Shown here: one piece after another, positions 3,901 through 34,783 of the stretch
Numbering within the stretch: the first letter of the stretch is position 1
Layout: every line of letters begins with the position of its first letter
From: Candidatus Poribacteria bacterium
GTDB taxonomy: Bacteria; Poribacteria; WGA-4E; WGA-3G
DNA length: 64,000 nt
Direction: 5' to 3'
Assembly: GCA_964291315.2 (NCBI GenBank)
Contig: OZ219753.1
Location: 1-64,000 of the forward strand
Translations under genes and position numbers: made by a program
The notes under the pieces: generated by a model
Seen by the model: the letters and a program-made list of their open reading frames with translations, nothing else
The model's database searches: none
What the model was told of the DNA's origin: nothing

Positions 3901-4733
3901 AGGTCGCATGGAAAACCCGGAAATTGCGTCCAATGATACTGCTATTTCTAATCTGTGTCCTCAGCATCGGTATCTGTGCATGCCTGCGGGAATCCCAATC
4001 TACTGATGAACCGCCCACAGAAATCGTCTCTGAAGTTGATGGTGCGGCAATGATGTTGATTCCAGCAGGCACGTTTCAGATGGGCTCTACCACGGGCGAC
4101 AGCGACGAAAAACCCGTGCATCCCGTGACCCTCCATGCATTCTATATGGACATCTATGAAGTAACCAATGCCCGCTATCAGAAATTCGTCGAAAGCACCG
4201 GTTATGCGCAACCACCACTTGCACATAACCCGCATTTTAACGCCCCGGATACCCCTGTCGTCCAAGTAAATTGGCGTGATGCAGCTGCTTATGCAGCATG
4301 GGCAAATAAGCGGCTGCCGACGGAAGCGGAATGGGAATACGCTGCACGCGGCGGTCTGGTTGGCAAACGATACCCGAACGGTGATATAATAACGCATGCA
4401 GATGCCAATCTGGCTGGCATAAGTGGAACAGACAAATGGAAGTGGACAGCCCCGGTCGGCAGCTTCCTTTCCAACGGCTATCACATATACGATATGGCGG
4501 GGAATGTCTGGGAATGGTGTTTTGACGAATACAACAGTGAATTTTACAGTCTGAGCACACAAGATAACCCGCGCTTCGGCGAAGAAGACACACCTGATAG
4601 AGAGAACTTCCGTATTCTGCGAGGAGGTGGATGGGGTGGCGCACCTGAAGACCTTCGTGTCGCAGACCGATGGTATCACCTTTCATCTGGCAGCACGATC
4701 GGTTTCCGATGTGTGAAAGACCTAGCACCCTAG
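3897..4733 (+). CDS. Formylglycine-generating-enzyme (FGE/SUMF1)-fold secreted or lipoprotein, probably non-catalytic
   Basis: Motifs RLPTEAEWEYAARGG, DMAGNVWEW and RGGGW...GFRC; N-terminal hydrophobic segment; the catalytic Cys pair is not evident. Confidence 0.9.
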   Translation: MKVAWKTRKLRPMILLFLICVLSIGICACLRESQSTDEPPTEIVSEVDGAAMMLIPAGTFQMGSTTGDSDEKPVHPVTLHAFYMDIYEVTNARYQKFVESTGYAQPPLAHNPHFNAPDTPVVQVNWRDAAAYAAWANKRLPTEAEWEYAARGGLVGKRYPNGDIITHADANLAGISGTDKWKWTAPVGSFLSNGYHIYDMAGNVWEWCFDEYNSEFYSLSTQDNPRFGEEDTPDRENFRILRGGGWGGAPEDLRVADRWYHLSSGSTIGFRCVKDLAP

Positions 4734-24315: not shown

Positions 24316-25224
24316 CTACCTACGTAAGGCTTGCATGAAGGCTTCGAGGCTCTCGGATTGCGGCACTGTGAGTAGCAATTGCTTCAGGGCTTGCAGGTCG
24401 TCTATCGCTTCGAGCGTAGGCTTTAAAGCCTCAACTGCGTCGGTGTTGAATTGCGTTCCGAGCAATGCGATGATGTTTTCAATAGTGCCTCTTCTCTCGC
24501 CTTGTTCTATGCCTTGTTCTATGCCTTGTTCTATGCCTTGTTTGCGAGCTTCTTGAATGTAGTGTTGAAAAAAAGGAGATTCTTGCATGATGCCCTCCGG
24601 TAAAAGCTGTTTGATAAGTTGAGGTTCGTGAATCAAGCCACCAAAAACGCCTAACGCTGCCAATAACGTCGCACGCGTCTGCCGATCCGTGTGAGCCGAT
24701 GCTGTCACATCAACGCATCTTTCTAACCAACGCCCCGGACTTACGCCCTCCGGCGGTCGCATCAACGGCGTAAACGGCAGGAGCCCAGGGCTCTGAGCCG
24801 CCAAAACCGAGGCTCCATCTATCTCCATCAACCTGATGACTTTGTAGCGCAATCTGTATTCGTAGCCGGGGCCCTCATAGGCATAGTATCCGTTATCATT
24901 TCGCCCTGCTCTCGGATGTAAATAAAGAACGTTGGAATAGACGGGTAATTCATATAAGTTGGTAAGAAAGCCGTTGTATCCCGCCATGCGGTATCCCATC
25001 GGTTTTCTGCTGTTATCCGTTTGCACCTCTGTATGGAGGACTACTGTTTGGTTGTTGATCTGGACTTTCAGTGTGCTATCATTGCGATGTGTTTTGAGCG
25101 TAGGTTGTTCAGTCTCGAGTTTCTCGAGGACGGTAATATCTGCGTTTCCTGTCACGAAGGCTGCGAATTCTTGCGAGTATTGAAGGATGAGATATTTTGC
25201 TGCGTTGTCGTAGGCTTGTGGCAT
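24316..25224 (-). CDS. Rpn/YhgA-like PD-(D/E)xK nuclease-family protein
   Basis: YDNAAKYL...DSTL...LHTEVQT, GLLPFTPLM and a C-terminal (GIEQ)3 repeat. TATAAT lies 6 nt before the ATG, suggesting a leaderless mRNA. Confidence 0.85.
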   Translation of the reverse strand: MPQAYDNAAKYLILQYSQEFAAFVTGNADITVLEKLETEQPTLKTHRNDSTLKVQINNQTVVLHTEVQTDNSRKPMGYRMAGYNGFLTNLYELPVYSNVLYLHPRAGRNDNGYYAYEGPGYEYRLRYKVIRLMEIDGASVLAAQSPGLLPFTPLMRPPEGVSPGRWLERCVDVTASAHTDRQTRATLLAALGVFGGLIHEPQLIKQLLPEGIMQESPFFQHYIQEARKQGIEQGIEQGIEQGERRGTIENIIALLGTQFNTDAVEALKPTLEAIDDLQALKQLLLTVPQSESLEAFMQALRR

Positions 25225-25277
25225 GTTGTTATTATAGCCTGAAAAGTGGAGAGATGCCAATTAATTTTCAAGGTTGA

Positions 25278-25399
25278 TTAGGTCTCGGTTTCCAAGGATC
25301 CGGTGAGTTGTGTAATTGCCTTTGAGGTAGGCATGAATCCCGTCATGACAGGATTCCGCATCCGGATCCCGCCGATGTTTACACTGAGTTTTGAGACAT
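25278..25399 (-). pseudogene. Internally deleted pyrD relic
   Basis: Encodes LSVNIGGIRMRNPVMT joined to ...ITQLTGSLETET*, matching the N- and C-termini of pyrD at 21189-22118. Confidence 0.85.
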
Positions 25400-25464
25400 T
25401 AATAAAAAAATAACCTATTGTGTCGGAATTCGCCCGAAATTTACGTGATTGTATATAGAGGCAG

Positions 25465-26291
25465 ATGACATTGCCTCTATATATGAATGAAGGCGCAAAT
25501 AGGGTGTGTAGCGACGTTAATTTAAATCGGCAATTCTTGGAAATTGATGACGAAGAAAAGGCCTATAAACTCCTCTTTGATAGATATTACAGGACCGTCC
25601 TTAACTACGTTACCAAGATGATGTGGGATCATCCGGATCCCGCCATAGGTGCCGAGGATATTGCAAGCGAAACGTTGATTATAGCCCTCAATAAAAGGAA
25701 GGAAATCCAAAAACCCGAAAGGTTGGTAGGATGGTTACTAACCGTCGCGAGGAACCGGGTGATTGATAGCATAAGAACCTCGGAAAGACGAACGAGACCC
25801 CTATCAACTCAATCGCTTGACAACCTTTCTGTTGAAGAAAAAGAGCTGCCTTTCGCATCTACCCTCGCGGAAGCCGACGCTGCAGAGGCTGAAACGAGAC
25901 AGTATCTGATGATGCGGGTCTTCAGGCTGCTGCCAGAGCGGGACAGAGAGATCGTAGAGCTTAGACTTGACGAGCTTTCGCCCAAAGAGATAGCGGCAGC
26001 GATAGACTCCACCGCTGGGGCAGTTCAGAAAAGATGGGGACGGCTGATTGCATGGCTGGGGCCTGTCGAGTCCACTTAGATGCCTTGATAGCGTGTCTAC
26101 CGGCGGCTGCCGATAGGAAGGTTATGGAGCGGTATTTTGATGGGCAACCTCTATCTGAGATTGCGAAAGCAGTCGGTATCTCGTGTTCTGCGGTTGATAG
26201 GCGGGTGAAGCGTGTGATAACGGCTTGGAAGAAAGCCGCGAAGCAAAACCCTACAGACCCCGTATCAGCGATGGTAGATAACGAGAGCTGA
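25465..26291 (+). pseudogene. ECF sigma factor with a duplicated region-4 HTH, frameshifted near 26065
   Basis: sigma2: AEDIASETL...GWLLTVARNRVID. sigma4: LPERDREIVEL...KEIA. A second sigma4 (LPAAADRKVM...SEIAKAVG) lies in another frame. Confidence 0.8.
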
Positions 26292-26311
26292 CCTCTAGTT
26301 TTAATTTTCAC

Positions 26312-26340
26312 TTGACAGGATTTCAAACTGGAGCTAACAT
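26312..26340 (+). promoter_or_regulatory. Repeated cassette promoter, copy 1
   Basis: TTGACA-17 bp-TAACAT; homologous to the copies at 31846 and 32578. Confidence 0.65.
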
Positions 26341-26583
26341 TGTTAGAATATTTGATGTACACTTTCAAGGGTTTCTCCTTATTTTTGAAGTTCTGTCATT
26401 TCAGACGAGATGCTGTTATATCTAGCTAGTAGTTTCCAAAGGCTGTCTCCCAAGTTAGATGCATGTTGTGAAACGATTAGGTTATTAGCAACTTATACAA
26501 AATACAGAGGGTTGCCAAGGAGAGCAAAACATTTTACCGTTTGCTTTTCCACAGCGATCCTGATAAAAATATAGGAGAACGTT

Positions 26584-26967
26584 ATGTTTTTACAGCAAAC
26601 GATGGGTCCTTGGTTCGCCATTCAACGCGCGAGTCAAGTTACGATGATTTTATTGGCATTTGCGATGCTGATTCTTCCGATATTACATAGTCCAAAAGAT
26701 GCCGATGCTGAGGTTACTAGTACAGGGCTTGTGGTCGCGGGGCTCGTGATCGCCGGAATCGGGGTTGCCGTCGCGTGGATAACTGGACAAGATCCTAAAT
26801 GTAATACTTGTGGTGAGAAAGCCGGTTCACCTGACTCACATCGGTCTGTCCACGATCCCTGTGGAACCGGTTATTGGACTTGTGATGCAGATTCTCACCG
26901 ATGTACTTGTAGCACCTGTGGTAGGCGGCAATGGTGCTGCGATCCGCATGACCATTCCAGCTCTTAA
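26584..26967 (+). CDS. Small secreted or membrane Cys/His-rich protein (A0)
   Basis: Signal peptide ending ADA, a Gly-rich TM helix, then CxxC...H...C.GYWTC...H.C.CxxC...WCC..H; RBS AGGAG. Confidence 0.75.
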   Translation: MFLQQTMGPWFAIQRASQVTMILLAFAMLILPILHSPKDADAEVTSTGLVVAGLVIAGIGVAVAWITGQDPKCNTCGEKAGSPDSHRSVHDPCGTGYWTCDADSHRCTCSTCGRRQWCCDPHDHSSS

Positions 26968-26982
26968 ATAATAGTACCCCTC

Positions 26983-27282
26983 ATGGAAACACACATTCAT
27001 CCCCAGAAGAGAAGAACATGGATGCTTACCTCACCAGCATACTTTGTACTTTTCGCTGCTGTTTTGGTTGTAGGAATATACATCCTCAATAAAGATGATC
27101 CTTGTAGAGGTTGTGATAGGCGCGTGTCTACCCCCGATGCACATTGGAGTGTTGACACTTCTGGCAGTGGTGGATGGAGCTGTTCTCCGCAGAGGCGAGA
27201 TACGAAATGGACTCAAGATAAGGGGACAGTTCAAAACATGTCCCCTCAACCGGCTAAAGTGCCTCTCATTATTGACAGATAG
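26983..27282 (+). CDS. Small TM + CxxC/H/C protein (B0)
   Basis: TM helix then CRGC...H...WSC; paralog of 33220-33513. Confidence 0.7.
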   Translation: METHIHPQKRRTWMLTSPAYFVLFAAVLVVGIYILNKDDPCRGCDRRVSTPDAHWSVDTSGSGGWSCSPQRRDTKWTQDKGTVQNMSPQPAKVPLIIDR

Positions 27283-27320
27283 AAGTTTTGCGAAACATTT
27301 TCAACTAGCCATGATGAGGA

Positions 27321-28022
27321 ATGCCCCTGATGATACACTCAAGAAAAATCACGATATTTTGTAGTTTATTTTTACTTATTGGCGGAATTTTGTTCCACTT
27401 CCATCAACAGAAATCTCAAACACATCCTCCAATAAAAATTTACAAGACGGCAATACCTGATGCGAATACAGCTCTCCCCGATCCAATAGACTCTACACAC
27501 GAGATACATAGTAGGACAGAGAATGATCCGACAGATAAAGACTCTGCGGCGGCATTGGCCCGTGATGTTTCTGAGGTTTCCTTAGAAAAGCGAAACTTCA
27601 CAGATGTGGAAACTCAAAATCCCCGGATCCCCGCCCGCTTGCATGAGGAGCCTGTTTCGGTGTCAGAAACATCTGCATCTAACGAAACGCTTCCAAACCA
27701 CCAAGAATGGCTCAACAACCAGATCTTAGAGATCATGGATAGGTGGAATGCAAAATATCCTGATCTTGTAGATATTCCGTACATGTCAAAAGAGGAATTT
27801 TTTGAAGCATATCCTACACGAGAAGAACGAGATAAGTTATTAAAACAGGCACAGCAAGCGGAAGCCGATTTTCTGATCGAACTTCGCGGCTATACAAAAC
27901 AACTTTCTCCTGATGTAAAAGCAGAGGGGATAGCCTTTCTAAAAGACTATTTTACAGGCCTATGGGGAGAGGATGCAGCTGATCAATTGATAGCAAAAAT
28001 TCGCAGAGATTTAGGGCTCTAA
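27321..28022 (+). CDS. Membrane-anchored hypothetical protein
   Basis: N-terminal TM helix, low-complexity linker and helical C-terminal domain. Confidence 0.7.
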   Translation: MPLMIHSRKITIFCSLFLLIGGILFHFHQQKSQTHPPIKIYKTAIPDANTALPDPIDSTHEIHSRTENDPTDKDSAAALARDVSEVSLEKRNFTDVETQNPRIPARLHEEPVSVSETSASNETLPNHQEWLNNQILEIMDRWNAKYPDLVDIPYMSKEEFFEAYPTREERDKLLKQAQQAEADFLIELRGYTKQLSPDVKAEGIAFLKDYFTGLWGEDAADQLIAKIRRDLGL

Positions 28023-28076
28023 TTCTCTTTGTACTTCCCAAGACATCTTGTTAGCATTTTGTCAGTTTGGGGTTTT

Positions 28077-29818
28077 ATGTTTTCAACGAGAGATCGTCTC
28101 TCTACCTATTCAGAACATTTCGTCTGTCTACACAAGCAGCGGGTCGGCTTATTTCTCTGCTTGTGTTTGACGATATTTTTGCTGAGGGTGTTGTCTTTGG
28201 ATGCCCACTGGTCTAGTGATGAGTCCCGTTGGCTACACCGGAGCGCACAGTTCATGTCTGCTGTCAAACAGGGCAATTTTTCTGGAACCCTTATTGCCTA
28301 CCACCCCGGCGTGATAACGATGTGGGTTGCGGGCCTCCGCACTTTTTTTGTAGACCCCGGTGTAGATGTTGAAAACCTCGCTTTTCCCGGTGTTTTATCG
28401 GTCTTGTCGTCTCCACAGGCATCGGCATCGCCTGCCTTTTGATCTACCGTCTCTTAGGGGGGTGGATTGCCCTTGCTAGTTGCGCGACGCTTGTCTTCTC
28501 CCCATTCTTTTTAGCACAGACGCGTCGCGTCCACACCGATGCACTCGCCACGACTTTCATCTTATTGACAGTGCTTCTGTTTTTGAGCTATTGCCAAAAG
28601 AGGTGCCGACATAGATACCTTATCTTTTCAGGTATCGCCTATGGGCTTGCGTTGCTTTCCAAAAGCTACGCCCTGATACTCTTGCCGTGGATCCCTGTGT
28701 GTCTGTTTCTCTTTCGGGAGAGACAGACTAGAAAATTAAAAACAGACATTGTGCAAGGGCTCTGTTTTCTCTTGTGTGCTATGCTCACTGTCCTTGTATT
28801 CTGGCCGGTTTTCTGGACCCCACTTTTCGGGCTCATGGGACTCGGTCTTTTCGGACTCACTTTTCTGCTGTTCCGAGGGATGAAAGCGGCCATGTGTCCG
28901 ATGTGGCTAGTGGCAGTCGCCTTCGCGGCGCTGTCTCTTGTCGGCGTGTGCATAGGACAAACGATAAGCCTCGTTTCGCAGAGCATCAATTGGGCGGTTA
29001 CAACCCCGCATGAAGTGGAGCACTTCTTTCTTGGAAAGGTCGTCAACGATCCTGGTGTATTCTTCTATCCGTTTGTGCTGATGACTAAAAGCACCCCGCT
29101 CATGCTGGCACTTGCACTCGTCTCATGCATCTTGTTATGGAAACACCGGGATGACTCCGAGGCAGGTGAACAACATTTCAAGAGCGGGGTCGCTCTCGTT
29201 ATCGGTGTGGTGTTTTTCACTTTGTGCCTCTCCTTTACAAGTAAAAAGTTCAGTCGGTATCTACTTCCAGTTTTTCCAATGTTAGAAATACTCGCAGCTA
29301 TAGGGTTCGTAGAGGGACTCAAATGGATAAACGCTCGTGTATCGCGCGTTGGAACCGAGTCACCCGCAAAGGACAAAACAGCTTTTGCTATACTCGTTTG
29401 CATCAGTTTCTTTTTTATTCAGATCCTGCCTGTGATAGCACGCCACCCGTATTATGGGACCTATTACAACCCTTGCTGGAAAGTGACCGACATTACCAAG
29501 ATTATTACAGTCGGCGATGCCTCCGGGTTGGATATTGCCGCAAACTACCTGAATCAGAAAACAACAGACAGACCCTTGCGGGTCCAGGTCTCGCCCTTAT
29601 CAAAATATCTTTTTTCGCGCTACTTTATAGGATTAACACGGCCTGCAGGAAGAACAGGAGGCCCCCCTGCTGACTACGAAGTTGTCTATATTAGAGATTC
29701 GCAAATAGGTAGAGTCCCACAAACAGGCACACTCAACGGTGAATTAGAAGCAGTTATCACGCTCAACGGGATTGACTACGTCTGGATTTACCGCATTCCC
29801 AACAAAGAAACCCCATGA
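28077..29818 (+). pseudogene. GT-C (ArnT/PMT-like) membrane glycosyltransferase, frameshifted near 28385
   Basis: WSSDE and YHPG in the first ORF; RRVHTDAL, LALLSK and RYLLP with many TM helices in the second ORF. Confidence 0.75.
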
Positions 29819-30729
29819 AGTTATCACTCGTCATCCCAGCGCTCAACGAAGCCGACTCATTGCCCGACTTATTCCAAAGCATACAGGCAACGGTAAAGGC
29901 ACACCGGTATCCTGCCGAAGTGATCTTTATCAATGATGGCAGCACGGATGACACCGCAGCGGTCTTAGACACGCTCATTGCAGAATCGCCTCTCCCTATT
30001 CATGTCATCCATTTCAGATGCAACCGCGGCAAAGCCGAGGCACTCACCGCAGGCTTTCAAAAAGCATCAGGCGACATTGTTATCACTATGGATGCTGACC
30101 TCCAAGACGACCCCGCAGAAATACCGAGACTTATTGACACCTTGCAAACGAAAAACCTAGATATGGTATCGGGGTGGAAATACCCGCGCAAAGACCCGCT
30201 TGAAAAACGGGCCTTCTCGTTTATTTTTAACCGTGTCACTGCGATGCTGACGGGTGTCAAACTCCATGACATGAATTGCGGTTTTAAGGCGTATCGCTCC
30301 GAAGTAGTCAAATCGCTACACCTCTACGGAGACTTGCATCGGTATATCCCGATCTTGGCGCATGCCGCGGGCTTTTCTGTCGGTGAGGTAAAAGTGAAAC
30401 ACCACGAGCGGCGGTTTGGAACATCGAAATACGGGCTCAAGCGGATACCGAAAGGCTTTTTTGATTTGCTGACTGTGCTGTTTTTGACGAAATACCAAAA
30501 GCGTCCGATGCACTTTTTCGCGGGGATTGGGAGTCTGTTTGTGTTCACAGGGTGTCTCCTTCTTCTCGGGCTCATGGCTTTGTATCTTTTCCCTGTGTGG
30601 AACATCCCCAAAAACCCTATTATCGGTATTGTCGCAGGACACTGCTTCCTCGCGGGGGTTCTGCTGGCAGGCATCGGACTTTTGGGTGAACTGCTCGTGG
30701 TACTTTTCACACAGAAGGATAAAGAATGA
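29815..30729 (+). CDS. GT2 polyprenol-phosphate glycosyltransferase (ArnC/GtrB-like)
   Basis: Motifs IPALNE, INDGSTD, MDADLQDDP, DMNCGFKAYR and LHRYIP; two C-terminal TM helices. Confidence 0.92.
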   Translation: MKLSLVIPALNEADSLPDLFQSIQATVKAHRYPAEVIFINDGSTDDTAAVLDTLIAESPLPIHVIHFRCNRGKAEALTAGFQKASGDIVITMDADLQDDPAEIPRLIDTLQTKNLDMVSGWKYPRKDPLEKRAFSFIFNRVTAMLTGVKLHDMNCGFKAYRSEVVKSLHLYGDLHRYIPILAHAAGFSVGEVKVKHHERRFGTSKYGLKRIPKGFFDLLTVLFLTKYQKRPMHFFAGIGSLFVFTGCLLLLGLMALYLFPVWNIPKNPIIGIVAGHCFLAGVLLAGIGLLGELLVVLFTQKDKE

Positions 30730-31676
30730 AGTCTGTCCGTCAATATGCTGGTTTCCTTCTGGCAGTTATACTCTTATATTTTCTTATAGCGCCTTTTGTA
30801 GAAACACAGTCGCGCCTCAAGGAAGCCCTCTTTGAGATACATTGGGGATGGTTGTTGTGTTCCTTTGGTGTGATTCTTTTTTATTGGACTGTGTATCTCT
30901 ATCCGTTTGCGATACTCCTGAGCCGTTTCATGGAAAAGCCTGTCTCTTTTCGGGATGCCTTTACGCTTTTCCATCTTGCCAACATCACGCGCTATCTTCC
31001 CGGTCGGATCTGGGGCGTTGTGAGACTGCTGTCTTTAAGCGGACAGTTCGGGTTGAGCAAAACCGCGGTCGGCAGTAGCCTGACGCTACACGTTGGCGTG
31101 GAGACCGCACTCGGTGGACTGATTGCGCTGTCCCTGCTGTTTTCAAAACAGATGCAAGACACAGCTGTAGAAGTGCTGAAAACTTTTCAAGGACAAATGG
31201 TGTTTTTGACGCTTGCTATCATAGGGATATTAGCAGGTATCTTCTTATGCATACCCAAACTCACAGGGCACGCCAAAACGTTTCTGAAAACATTCCTTCC
31301 TCACTTAGGAAATATCAGGCTTTGTGGAAACATTCTTTTTACTCATAGTCTCTTGTGGCTCTGTCAAGGGTTCGCCTTTTGTCTCTTTGTTCAAAGTTTC
31401 GAGCCTGTCCCGTGGACGAAGGCCGGTCTCCTGACCGCCTGCTTTGCGTTTGCTTGGTTTGTAGGGTTCTTGAGTTTTCTGACCCCCGGTGGTTTAGGCA
31501 TTCGGGAAGGCCTGTTGGGACTGTTACTAGCGGTCTATATGTCACCCGCACAGGCATCCTTCGCCGCTCTGCTAGGTCGGATGTGGATGCTGTCGGCAGA
31601 GATGATCTTGGCAGGCGTGGCGTTTTTTCTTCACAGGCGTTGTTATAGAAGACAAAATGAGGATCACAACCTCTGA
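30726..31676 (+). CDS. Lysylphosphatidylglycerol-synthase-TM / flippase-like membrane protein
   Basis: Motifs RYLPGRIW and TPGGLGIREG; multiple TM helices. Confidence 0.85.
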   Translation: MKSVRQYAGFLLAVILLYFLIAPFVETQSRLKEALFEIHWGWLLCSFGVILFYWTVYLYPFAILLSRFMEKPVSFRDAFTLFHLANITRYLPGRIWGVVRLLSLSGQFGLSKTAVGSSLTLHVGVETALGGLIALSLLFSKQMQDTAVEVLKTFQGQMVFLTLAIIGILAGIFLCIPKLTGHAKTFLKTFLPHLGNIRLCGNILFTHSLLWLCQGFAFCLFVQSFEPVPWTKAGLLTACFAFAWFVGFLSFLTPGGLGIREGLLGLLLAVYMSPAQASFAALLGRMWMLSAEMILAGVAFFLHRRCYRRQNEDHNL

Positions 31677-31845
31677 TAGCCATCGCGGGAAGACGGAAAA
31701 CGTCGTCTCAAAGGACATAGCTGTGCGCCTCCAAGAATTTCTCGAGCCCTATCTGAATAACCGGAACCTTAGCATTTTCAAATATCTGAGATTACACAAG
31801 CAATCCCTATCTGGTGTTCTGCGGTTGATAGTTAGTTTTAATTTC

Positions 31846-31874
31846 TTGACAAGCTTTCAAACTGGAGCTAATAT
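31846..31874 (+). promoter_or_regulatory. Repeated cassette promoter, copy 2
   Basis: TTGACA-17 bp-TAATAT. Confidence 0.65.
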
Positions 31875-31990
31875 TATTGGCATATTTGATGTATCCTTTT
31901 TATATAGCATACAGAGGATTGCTAAACAAATGCAATACGTTTGTGATCTTACTTTCAGAAAGCAATTTCTGAAAAATAAAGGAGGGCTCC

Positions 31991-32452
31991 ATGAAAGAGA
32001 GGAAGCACTACAACGCGCAAACGCTGTTGGCGGCGGTAACACGCTTGGCGAAACGGGTGGAAACGTTCTTCCGCGTTTCTACCCCTTCTTCGCGAAAAAA
32101 ATTAGGGAAACTTGCAGAGCACGTGATCTTGGTCATGTCGGTAATCACGGTGTTGGGTGCGTTCTTATGGGCATCCGTGGATAAACCGTGTAACAACGGG
32201 TGTGGTGCAAAGGTACCGGAGCCCGCGATGTCGCACCGTTCAGAATGTTCAAACTGTGATGATGCCGTATGGAAATGTCCGCAATTGGGTCATCCACATA
32301 AAGCCGAATGCCCTGTTTGCCAGCAGTTTTACTGGATTTGCCCCGCGGAGTCTGAAGCCTTGCTTCATGGGGAGTTCTGCCAGTTTTCTAGAAAACGTTC
32401 GCAGCCCTATCTGCGTCTCAGTCCGGCTGACGAGAAACAGATAGATAGATAG
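31991..32452 (+). CDS. Membrane-anchored Cys/His-rich Zn-finger-like protein (A1)
   Basis: RBS GGAGG; TM helix; CNNGC-x10-H-x3-CxxC...C...H-x3-CxxC...YWIC...H-x3-C. Confidence 0.8.
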   Translation: MKERKHYNAQTLLAAVTRLAKRVETFFRVSTPSSRKKLGKLAEHVILVMSVITVLGAFLWASVDKPCNNGCGAKVPEPAMSHRSECSNCDDAVWKCPQLGHPHKAECPVCQQFYWICPAESEALLHGEFCQFSRKRSQPYLRLSPADEKQIDR

Positions 32453-32494
32453 ATAAGCGATGCCCCGTGGGGCACAACAGAGGAATGGTTTATC

Positions 32495-32562
32495 ATGACA
32501 AAGCGACCCAGTAAGAGAAGAACATGGCTGTTTGTCTCATCAACATACTTTGTACTTTTTGC
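32495..32562 (+). pseudogene. Truncated B gene at the duplication junction
   Basis: MTKRPSKRRTWLFVSSTYFVLF is cut off where the next unit begins. Confidence 0.8.
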
Positions 32563-32577
32563 TAGTTTTAATTTTCC

Positions 32578-32606
32578 TTGACAAGCTTTCAAACAGGAGC
32601 TAATAT
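32578..32606 (+). promoter_or_regulatory. Repeated cassette promoter, copy 3
   Basis: TTGACA-17 bp-TAATAT. Confidence 0.65.
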
Positions 32607-32722
32607 TATTGGCATATTTGACGCATCCTTTTTATACAGCGTGCAGTGGATTGCTAAACAAATGCAATACGTTTGTGATCTTACTTTCAGAAAGCAATTT
32701 CTGAAAAATAGAGGAGGGCTCC

Positions 32723-33181
32723 ATGAAAGAGAGGAAGCACTACAACGCGCAAACGCTGTTGGCGGCGGTAACACGCTTGGCGAAACGGGTGGAAACGTTC
32801 TTCCGCGTTTCTACCCCTTCTTCGCGAAAAAAATTAGGGAAACTTGCAGAGCACGTGATCTTGGTCATGTCGGTAATCACGGTGTTGGGTGCGCTCTTAT
32901 GGGCATCCGTGGATAAACCTTGTGACAACGGGTGTGGTGCAAAGGTACCGGATCCCTCGGCTTCGCACCTCTCACAGTGCGCGAGATGTGATCAGAGTAT
33001 ATTCAACTGTCCTGACCTGATTCATCCACATAAAGCCGAATGCCCTGTTTGCCAGCAGTTTTACTGGATTTGCTGGGAGTCTGAAGCCCTGCTTCATGGT
33101 GAGTTCTGCCAGTTTTCTAGAAAACGTTCGCAGCCCTATCTGCGTCTCAGTCCGGCTGACGAGAAACAGATAGATAGATAA
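32723..33181 (+). CDS. Membrane-anchored Cys/His-rich Zn-finger-like protein (A2)
   Basis: Paralog of A1 with the same Cys/His scaffold and a divergent central patch. Confidence 0.8.
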   Translation: MKERKHYNAQTLLAAVTRLAKRVETFFRVSTPSSRKKLGKLAEHVILVMSVITVLGALLWASVDKPCDNGCGAKVPDPSASHLSQCARCDQSIFNCPDLIHPHKAECPVCQQFYWICWESEALLHGEFCQFSRKRSQPYLRLSPADEKQIDR

Positions 33182-33219
33182 GCGATGCCCCATGGGGCAC
33201 AACAGAGGAATGGTTTATC

Positions 33220-33513
33220 ATGACAAAGCGACCCAGTAAGAGAAGAATATGGCTGTTTGTCTCATCAACATACTTTGTACTTTTCGCTGCTGTTTTGATT
33301 ATAGGAACATACATCCTGAATAAAGATTATGCTTGTGAAGGTTGTGGGAGACGTGTATCTATTCCCGAAGCACATTGGCGTATTGACGCTTCTGGCAGTG
33401 GTGGATGGAGCTGTTCGCCCAATGAGCCGGATATGAAACAGATTCAAGGGAGCGGGAGGGTTCAGAACATGTCCCCTCAACCGGCTAAAGAGCCTCTTAT
33501 TATTGACAGATAG
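33220..33513 (+). CDS. Small TM + CxxC/H/C protein (B2)
   Basis: Paralog of 26983-27282. Confidence 0.72.
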   Translation: MTKRPSKRRIWLFVSSTYFVLFAAVLIIGTYILNKDYACEGCGRRVSIPEAHWRIDASGSGGWSCSPNEPDMKQIQGSGRVQNMSPQPAKEPLIIDR

Positions 33514-33590
33514 AAGTTTTGCGAAACATTTTCACATAGCCCGCATACATTCATAATTTTTGAGGGGAGAGTTTTTGCCGTAAAAGTTGT

Positions 33591-33619
33591 TTGAGACGCG
33601 CGTCCGCGTGTGGTATAAT
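33591..33619 (+). promoter_or_regulatory. sigma70-type promoter with no long downstream ORF
   Basis: TTGAGA-17 bp-TATAAT with an extended -10 TG. Confidence 0.55.
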
Positions 33620-34093
33620 GGAAGTCTCTTGGATCGGCATAACCCGCGCAGCCACTCAGTTAAGCGCCTACCTCCGGACAGACAAAAAGAGGGAAGCTTG
33701 CGATGCAAGAAAACAAATTTCCGACTGACCATTTTAAGGGCGTTGTTTGTTGAAACGAAATCTTAGTATTACTCCGTTTTTCCATATCTGTTCTATAAGG
33801 TAATTCGTTACAGCACAAATATAGGTATATGTGATATGCCAACTTGGTGGCGTTCCCTCCAAAATATCATCCGTGTCGCGTTATAGAAAACATCTGGACA
33901 TCTTGTCGGTTCTAATGCAAGGCATCATATACCATACCGTCTTTTGATCCAGAGCTGAATCGCGGGCCAACGGATGAATCGATAGGTTCTTTTTCACTTT
34001 CGCTCTCAGTGCAATTGCCAAAAACTACCGCGATAGATTTCGGGGCATGTGGCATTCAGCAAGGATGCCGCATAGCAGCTGCGACTAGTGCTG

Positions 34094-34783
34094 TTAGAGA
34101 TTTTCTTCGGTAGGTATTGGTTCACCAGTCTCCGTTTTGCCTGAGAGATAGAGGAACCATGTGGTAAGCCCAATAGCGATAACAATCCACAGTACCCCCC
34201 AAACTTCAGTCGAAATTCCTGTCACTTCTGAAAGCATCCTAGCATCTGACCGGAGATTCGACCTATCTAAGACATCGCTTTTGATGTCTAGGATTGCGTA
34301 AAGGCAGCTGGTTACGCCGATGATACGTAGAAACCAATCGTTGACGCCCGCGGGGAGATAAAACCCGATGGCGATCAAAGCGACACCGAAGCCGATACCG
34401 AATAAGAAAGTAAAGGCGCTTCTGCCGTAAGCGATGGAAATTGCGACCATAACGATACCGATAACGATGCTAATTCCTTTATCGAAGCGAGTTCTTGCTG
34501 CTAGGAGCAAGATAAGGCCTCCTAACAATAGGCTTCCGAGATAGCCGGCAGTCAGCGTCCAAAACCGCGACCCGCCTTGTGTCAGAGCGTGTCCCCCCTG
34601 CTGAGGGTTAATCTGAATTTCGACGATACGACCCCCCGTTACGATTGCCGCAAGTCCGTGACTCACCTCATGCATAAACACAACGAAAATTTTGAGCGGA
34701 TAAATAAAAAGGGTGTTCCATAGGAGCACAATGCTTATGAAAATTAGGAGCAGGACAATGTAACGTTTGAAAAGTGTTGACAT
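34094..34783 (-). CDS. M50 (M50B-like) membrane metallopeptidase
   Basis: Motifs HEVSH, AGYLG and SDA; multiple TM helices. Confidence 0.9.
   Translation of the reverse strand: MSTLFKRYIVLLLIFISIVLLWNTLFIYPLKIFVVFMHEVSHGLAAIVTGGRIVEIQINPQQGGHALTQGGSRFWTLTAGYLGSLLLGGLILLLAARTRFDKGISIVIGIVMVAISIAYGRSAFTFLFGIGFGVALIAIGFYLPAGVNDWFLRIIGVTSCLYAILDIKSDVLDRSNLRSDARMLSEVTGISTEVWGVLWIVIAIGLTTWFLYLSGKTETGEPIPTEENL

Follow-up and report, generated by a model that had tools for sequence, protein, structure and literature searches.

A tandem pair of Cys/His-rich membrane protein genes in Candidatus Poribacteria with one divergent predicted hairpin: a probable recombination mosaic

A tandem gene pair that differs in one patch

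The window analysed in our study is a 64,000-nucleotide (nt) stretch of a Candidatus Poribacteria genome (contig OZ219753.1 of assembly GCA_964291315.2, positions 1 to 64,000), and near its middle it carries two neighbouring genes, here called A1 and A2, which encode small membrane-anchored Cys/His-rich proteins and are followed by gene B, which encodes a shorter member of the same superfamily (Table 1). The alignment of the DNA reveals a tandem duplication with a period of 732 nt, in which each unit comprises a sigma-70-like promoter site, a leader of ~105 nt, an A gene, a short GC hairpin, and the first 73 nt of B; as no more of B is included in the unit, the B of copy 1 is truncated. The boundary of the unit is a 9-nt microhomology (31834-31842 and 33292-33300) in which 8 of the 9 bases are alike.

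The 740 homologous columns of the two units contain 51 substitutions and 9 gap columns in three indels (2, 3, and 4 nt), and their distribution is very uneven. In a single patch of the A gene, 29 of 69 bases differ, whereas outside the patch we found 22 substitutions and the three small indels over 671 aligned columns, with 1 difference in the 246 nt of leader and N-terminal coding sequence at 31916-32161. When the coding sequence is considered alone, 29 of 72 patch bases differ, compared with 5 of 381 elsewhere (Fisher p = 3.9e-21), a count that omits the codons of a second small difference (118-119 in A1, 118 in A2), where a 3-nt indel and two substitutions turn CPAE into CWE. At the protein level, 14 of the 24 patch residues are changed, and H82, C86, C89, and C96 are retained. 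The preliminary description of this DNA, made from the sequence alone, had reported the near-identity of the two copies including promoter and leader, the later CPAE/CWE difference, and the retention of every Cys and His among mostly changed residues; these counts bear out all of it.

The silent sites give the age of the patch relative to its surroundings. Synonymous divergence (dS) is 0.88 and nonsynonymous divergence (dN) is 0.52 in the patch, as opposed to 0.036 and 0.007 in the rest of the gene (Nei-Gojobori), so that silent-site divergence is ~24-fold higher inside the patch than outside it. The codons of unchanged residues tell the same: 3 of 10 carry a silent change in the patch and 3 of 125 outside (p = 0.005). 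Because the silent divergence is raised to this extent, the segment has its own, older history and is not the product of a burst of positive selection on a young duplicate; the patch is of older and separate ancestry from the rest of the gene.

Table 1. Coordinates of the features of the A1/A2/B module and of the older module copy in the window.
Feature	Coordinates	Strand	Remarks
ECF sigma factor gene with extra region-4 ORF	25465..26291	+	25465-26079 and 26034-26291; heads the older module copy
A', distant paralog	26584..26967	+	22% identity to A1; two hydrophobic segments, same Cys/His scaffold
B', paralog of B	26983..27282	+	84% DNA identity over 300 nt
Relic of region-4 ORF, just upstream of A1	31783..31831	+	86% to 26152-26200
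Tandem unit copy 1	31833..32567	+	Promoter, leader, A1, intergenic hairpin, first 73 nt of gene B
Promoter-like site of A1	31846..31874	+	TTGACA, 17 nt, TAATAT; 10 of 12 matches; sigma-70 consensus match only
A1	31991..32452	+	153 aa; positive N-terminal helix, one membrane helix, Cys/His knuckle domain, C-terminal ...IDR
Divergent patch in A1	32221..32289	+	Codons 77-100; whole first predicted beta-hairpin, C86-x2-C89 at turn
Second small difference	32342..32346	+	CPAE in A1; CWE in A2 at 33074-33075
Truncated 5' end of gene B	32495..32567	+	Left by the duplication; alignment of units
Tandem unit copy 2	32568..33292	+	Promoter, leader, A2, start of full gene B
Promoter-like site of A2	32578..32606	+	Same as that of A1; sigma-70 consensus match only
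A2	32723..33181	+	152 aa; 89% identity to A1
Divergent patch in A2	32953..33021	+	Counterpart of the A1 patch
Gene B	33220..33513	+	97 aa; membrane helix, C-x2-C, H, C-terminal ...IDR
ECF, extracytoplasmic function; ORF, open reading frame; aa, amino acids.

Recurrence of the island in a second species

In a second Poribacteria species of the same genus, available as one contig (G082), we identified two A-type genes located 600 kb apart, one of them intact (P0004) and the other with its frame broken at a run of adenines. The flanks of these genes are unrelated and their N-terminal codons are only ~55-60% alike; over a block of ~390 nt, which extends from the adenine run to ~45 nt past the stop codon, the two are 93-100% identical. 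Exactly at codons 77-100 an island breaks this block, and in it 30 of 72 bases differ, compared with 20 of 276 outside it (p = 2.5e-11). It is the only large divergence island within the homogenised block, it is as diverged as the never-homogenised N-terminal codons, and its silent divergence is saturated, against 0.23 outside. The comparison of all four genes (A1, A2, and the G082 pair) gives a flank identity of 91-100% within a genome and 57-61% between species, and a patch identity of 58-60% within a genome and 49-64% between species. These genes show the pattern of concerted evolution with an island: the flanks are alike within genomes and the island is not, and the silent divergence of the island is raised both in the genome of the window (G000) and in G082.

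Three further paralog pairs, each most likely present in one genome and compared as proteins only, have unrelated N-terminal halves and identical stretches in the Cys/His domain. P0003 and P0008 have 18 identical patch residues within otherwise diverged domains, which is the inverse of A1/A2; P0060 and P0017 share the whole domain; and P0025 and P0018 share all of it except for an island at residues 104-113. From these comparisons, segment sharing appears to be common in the family. The proposal in the preliminary description that the patch is an exchanged segment is strengthened by the island in G082 and by the identical segments that same-genome paralogs elsewhere share within diverged proteins.

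Attempts to enlarge the set of alleles added little. A metagenome scan returned 130 pattern matches, none of them a relative; a scan of the genome collection returned the two G082 loci only; and a word-indexed protein search with a 40-row profile returned 17 proteins and no new close alleles.

An observation on the adenine run itself should also be mentioned. A1 and A2 both carry a run of seven adenines in the Arg-Lys-Lys codons before the membrane helix (32096-32102 and 32828-32834), and the corresponding run of G082 (L025/L026, ~4085-4095) has eight adenines in the intact gene and nine in the one with the broken frame; the homogenised block starts exactly there. The frame break could be due to a sequencing error, to decay, or to phase variation.

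The tandem arrangement in read-run contigs

Special attention was given to the reality of the tandem. The stretch is covered by contigs of one public run (X1), which is possibly the source sample and hence not independent. There, each patch version forms a 188-nt contig of its own, with 0 differences and a depth of 1000; the depth of the unique flanks is 995-1021 and that of the parts common to both units is 1470-1840. Three contigs read exactly 1000, possibly as a result of rounding. If the patches were alleles of a single locus, the single-copy depth would be divided between them, and therefore these depths contradict the tandem mis-assembly of two strains' alleles, the scenario against which the preliminary description had cautioned. 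The A1/A2 tandem is real. The only variant letters in the X1 contigs, which drop rare variants, are at 32551 and 32552, and there are none inside either patch.

A second run of the same species label (X2) yields contigs that are ~95% identical to this stretch. The 3' end of A is joined directly to a full-length B in an X2 contig. X2 contig sequence is identical to A1 over 32254-32293; upstream of 32245, it is a different, unalignable sequence, of which, read in the frame of A1, 3 of 9 residues match A1 and 3 of 9 match A2. X2 lacks cover at 32084-32211 and 32468-32723, and these gaps were not counted as absence.

A Poribacteria family with a fixed Cys/His scaffold

A profile search of 1.84 billion cluster representatives identified 55 proteins at E <= 1e-3, 28 of them at E <= 1e-10. 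According to our genome searches, the family is present in 10 of the 65 genomes of the genus and in 22 of 176 Poribacteria genomes, the window's own genome included; when the latter is excluded, it occurs in 18 of 111 genomes of its own taxonomic family, in 3 of 29 of one other, and in 0 of 35 of nine others. The family is small, restricted to Poribacteria, and unannotated. The source databases label its proteins as hypothetical, no consistent Pfam family was found among 40 members (sporadic sub-threshold matches concern one member each), NCBIfam has no model for it, PADLOC assigned 0 families to five proteins, the ESM Atlas gave no usable match, and a full-text literature search found no description of the family in the titles and abstract openings.

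In the domain that follows the membrane helix, 12 residues, 9 of them Cys and 3 His, are the same in all or nearly all family members: C67, C71, H82, C86, C89, C96, H103, C107, C110, C117, and H126, in addition to C130, which is Cys in all 33 rows with a residue at that position. Among the 40 members, the mean entropy of the non-ligand positions is 2.74 bits in the patch and 2.66-2.82 bits at neighbouring positions. On this comparison, fixed Cys/His with everything between them changing is a property of the whole domain and not of the patch; A1/A2 and the G082 pair stand out in that homogenisation has spared this one piece. The hypervariable patch on a fixed scaffold, as it was first described, consequently holds for the A1/A2 pair but not across the family.

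AlphaFold2 with a 40-row alignment produced a model with a mean predicted local distance difference test (pLDDT) score of 82.5, reaching 92-95 at residues 61-120, in which a long N-terminal and membrane helix is followed by the beta-hairpins 83-85/92-94 and 104-106/113-115. A C-x2-C lies at the turn of each predicted hairpin (C86-x2-C89 and C107-x2-C110), an arrangement that, as a prediction only, fits a zinc ribbon or knuckle, and the patch residues 77-100 constitute the entire first predicted hairpin. Foldseek gave no significant match (best E = 0.31 and 0.72), and neither did a sequence search of the Protein Data Bank (PDB; best E = 0.063). VIA-align with the full model matched only residues 1-63 of the N-terminal helix, unspecifically and with Z up to 6.2; for this reason, the domain was folded alone (mean pLDDT 73.6), and 0 of 48,161 chains reached Z >= 2. 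The weak structure matches are all zinc-finger or zinc-ribbon modules, from which we infer, reasonably but not as a result, that the domain binds metal; it would be a small metal-binding module, with zinc as the probable metal, or a disulfide-locked one.

Regarding the topology, a crude hydropathy and charge count over the one-helix class (n = 26) gives 3.3 K+R before the helix and 1.8 after it, which suggests that the Cys/His domain of this class faces outward. The two-segment class, to which A' belongs, has an acidic loop and an ambiguous topology. The segment before the last membrane helix has a basic charge in one-helix proteins and an acidic one in two-segment proteins (P0001-P0060), and in the latter the first hydrophobic segment is followed by an A-x-A-like motif; the membrane may separate the Cys/His domains of the two classes, or else the first segment may be removed as a signal. 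The C-termini differ as well: a conserved x-D-R (or D-K) ends the one-helix class and the B proteins (32440-32449, 33502-33510, 27271-27279), and Ser/Asn-rich repeats (such as GNNSS units) or C-S-S-G-C-C-S tails end the two-segment class.

Search for donor copies

We searched for copies from which the patches could have been taken. The blastn-short search of 101-nt patch windows and of both units against the whole genome (4.4 Mb, 95% complete) returned only the patches themselves and chance 15-17-mers, and exact 9-mers of the A1 and A2 patches share nothing with the five other paralogs beyond one chance match. When the G082 patches were searched against G082, a single-contig genome, and against G000, no donor was found, and the only match was one of 38 nt at 79% between one G082 patch and the A1 patch. 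At the patch borders, inverted or direct repeats that could serve a site-specific exchange were limited to short matches at chance level. Accordingly, the segment exchange from a paralog pool that the preliminary description had inferred stands in one respect, a separate segment history by recombination or gene conversion, as the ~24-fold silent divergence indicates, and falls in the other, since the donor copy it called for is present neither in this genome for A1/A2 nor in G082 for the G082 patches. Silent-cassette variation was rejected as an explanation, given that neither G000 nor G082 holds a genomic donor pool.

Evaluation of the explanations

Our study indicates that this locus is a mosaic in an unstudied family of small membrane-anchored Cys/His-rich proteins and not a new mutation machine. 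We consider it moderately probable that the A1/A2 pair is a recombination mosaic in which the hairpin is exchanged or retained as a unit under selection. In the pair, the promoter, leader, membrane helix, second hairpin, and tail have been kept alike by recent duplication, gene conversion, or both, and the 24 codons of the whole first predicted hairpin are far older and of separate ancestry. Selection would keep two hairpin versions because the hairpin determines what the protein recognises. The presence of the island at identical codons in two species suggests that the hairpin acts as a unit and that two versions of it are favoured, and this preference for two versions would point to the first hairpin as a specificity-determining surface.

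The selected mosaic could have arisen in two ways: by retention, that is, an old difference protected from conversion, or by import, in which the difference reached a young tandem late or came with an allele captured from another strain. The recent look of the tandem and the X2 data fit a late import into one copy as well as retention; when weighed together, the young-looking junction and X2 appear to favour import, and the recurrence appears to favour retention or repeated selection.

Several observations weigh against the selected mosaic. First, the tandem junction and the ~3% divergence of the flanks look recent. Second, there is no tandem-junction contig among the X2 contigs listed, with the caveat that holes in contig data prove nothing. 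Third, pairing by type is not seen among the four patches, two from each species, and they therefore do not demonstrate an ancient two-type system. Fourth, the mosaic borders vary: the island of P0025/P0018 lies at 104-113, P0003/P0008 share ~67 to 92, and X2 differs over ~32068-32245. Fifth, dN/dS in the patch is ~0.6 and not >1, so that it lends no support to the strong diversifying selection offered as an option in the preliminary description. Finally, the patch is, family-wide, no more variable than the other non-ligand positions.

The first alternative, possible but in our judgement unlikely, is a neutral one-off event. In this case the tandem would stem from a recent duplication, or from an unequal crossover that took in the allele of a second strain, and at the same time or later a single short conversion tract would have come from a diverged homolog that is foreign or has since been lost; the patch would be unselected and its difference without functional meaning. 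The flanks speak for it, since even their non-coding parts and the dead B fragment differ only by ~3%, which is near the ~5% distance to the X2 relative, itself seemingly without the tandem; short-tract transfers occur in the family; and no donor is left in the genome. What a neutral tract explains poorly is the island of an independent pair in another species at exactly the same 24 codons, a coincidence that would be rare for a random tract.

We regard as very unlikely a second alternative, in which the patch accumulated point mutations locally and at an accelerated rate after a recent duplication, through positive selection or a mutator other than a diversity-generating retroelement (DGR), and purifying selection held the Cys/His. 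The many changed residues with all ligands kept are what such a process would leave, but it does not account for silent sites that are as diverged as replacement sites, for an island in G082 that has diverged as far as codons that were never homogenised, or, to the extent that contigs retain variants, for the lack of variant letters in the X1 patches.

An assembly artefact, with the alleles of two strains placed in tandem, has to be considered in a genome derived from a metagenome, the more so if X1 is its own source sample, and it is nonetheless extremely unlikely, given that the patch arms are at single-copy depth, that the shared parts are well above it, and that the junction carries a truncated B at a microhomology. 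As for a DGR acting on the patch, the short variable tract on a fixed scaffold is all that recommends it, and we give it practically no credence: adenine is found at 6 of 29 substituted sites in A1 and at 4 of 29 in A2, in agreement with the preliminary description, which saw no adenine restriction and no DGR; there is no second genomic copy of either patch to act as a template repeat; and the genome has only two reverse transcriptase matches (PF00078), at C4:495366 and C3:32128, which are 463 kb away and on another contig, with none near the 32-kb position of the window.

Relation to known systems and possible role

RHD/RHCE is the textbook case of a divergence island under gene conversion, described by two-locus models of conversion with selection. 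Islands of this type resemble ours in that most of the length is homogenised, a short segment is deeply diverged, and silent divergence is high within it; they differ in that ours are bacterial, concern one tandem and one dispersed pair, coincide with one predicted hairpin, and have their selection inferred from recurrence only. The Opa proteins of Neisseria are expressed multi-copy surface proteins with mosaic variable segments. As with their HV1 and HV2 segments, there are intact paralogs in the genome with near-identical frameworks and short variable segments that intragenomic recombination reshuffles, whereas here only two copies are near-identical and the scaffold is a predicted Cys/His knuckle instead of a beta-barrel loop. 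Silent-cassette variation of the pilE/pilS, vlsE, and tprK kind also has a variable tract bordered by conserved sequence; unlike it, G000 and G082 hold no silent donor copies.

Zinc-binding anti-sigma (ZAS) factors carry the motif H-x3-C-x2-C (Pfam zf-HC2). This motif occurs twice in the A proteins (H82...C89 and H103...C110), which have a membrane anchor, and in the older module the family genes come after an ECF sigma gene; on the other hand, the motifs of A are located after the membrane helix and not in an N-terminal cytoplasmic domain before it. None of the 40 family members matched zf-HC2 at E <= 0.1, and A1 and A2 had no match at E <= 1. In another genome, G009 (L005), the ~800 nt that precede the family genes contain no ECF sigma ORF and instead an ORF that resembles a sigma-54 activator. 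A precursor of a ribosomally synthesised and post-translationally modified peptide (RiPP) was ruled out on account of the membrane helix; no RiPP enzyme family was found among the neighbours.

These results provide a clean bacterial divergence island within homogenised paralogs, found independently twice at the same codons. They also single out one hairpin as the element that likely determines the function of these otherwise unknown proteins, which are encoded next to an ECF sigma factor and an envelope glycosylation set of three parts. Should ligand specificity reside in the hairpin, the proteins would be candidates for the means by which an uncultured symbiont of sponges recognises what surrounds it. 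Judging by its neighbours, the family may serve envelope glycosylation, as acceptor or as regulator, or it may take part in sigma-factor signalling; a complex prediction for the ECF sigma factor and A1 scored 0.00 (mark 0.32) and is evidence neither way. A broader proposal, which we find doubtful, is that Poribacteria have a modular recognition system in which 24-residue zinc-knuckle hairpins would be swapped as units between paralogs and strains on a fixed membrane-anchored Cys/His scaffold. Selection would keep the alternatives side by side, and the symbiont would thereby possess a small combinatorial set of receptors in its envelope, with ligands from the host, from phages, or among glycans; the system would be linked to a dedicated ECF sigma/GT-C glycosylation module.

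Genomic context and additional observations

The genome contains seven family members across three modules. The first (25465-27282) consists of the ECF sigma gene, A', and B', and is followed by genes for an unknown anchored protein, a PMT_2-type GT-C transferase, a GT2 transferase, and a multi-pass membrane protein; the second is A1/A2/B; and the third is on contig C1. The region-4 relic upstream of A1 indicates that the A1/A2/B module derives from a sigma-A-B module. The neighbours of the family in the window are the sigma factor, the GT-C and GT2 transferases, the membrane protein, an M50B-type peptidase, and a chorismate synthase; the gene for the M50B-type peptidase lies downstream in both species, and the order A', A, unknown protein, GT-C recurs in relatives.

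Other details of these modules are as follows. The ECF sigma factor with a second region-4 domain is one 228-amino-acid ORF in G082 (L026 2046-2732) and two overlapping ORFs here. The PMT_2-type transferase is also split into two ORFs, 28029-28442 and 28439-29818, with a 4-nt overlap, and only the second matches PMT_2. In G082, the A' gene carries in-frame stop codons, and an extra membrane-anchored Cys/His protein with a different arrangement of H-x3-C-x2-C repeats is encoded between A' and A (L026 3530-3931). The two reverse transcriptase ORFs of the genome (G000 C4:495366-496007 and C3:32128-32769) are of equal size (368 amino acids) and have near-equal scores.

The promoter and leader sequences are common to A1, A2, A', and the copy on contig C1. 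A promoter element of ~55 nt, 76-85% alike, and a pre-start leader of ~85 nt are found in all four (31845-31990, 32577-32722, 26311-26583, and L024 1248-1509), for proteins that are ~22% identical, and the A' and C1 copies have ~127 extra nt between the promoter element and the leader. The A1 leader folds modestly better than shuffled sequence (z -2.15), with 7 of 200 shuffles equally good, and an Rfam search over 25000-34500 gave 0 matches. The best promoter-like site of the region (33591-33619, TTGAGA-17-TATAAT with TG, 11 of 12 matches) is located in the ~580-nt gap between B and the M50B peptidase gene and faces a stretch without a long ORF.

Finally, three small differences between the tandem units were observed in addition to those described above. 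A cluster of seven substitutions in 53 nt (31863-31915 and 32595-32647) lies between the -10 site and the conserved leader. An 11-mer starting with CCCGCG, with 9 of 11 bases alike, is present at both A1-specific differences (32222-32232 and 32342-32352), probably by chance. The 3' ends of the A genes are a tetranucleotide repeat, (AGAT)4 in A1 (32436-32452) and (AGAT)3 in A2 (33165-33181), and with either number the last residues are unchanged and a stop codon, TAG or TAA, is present.

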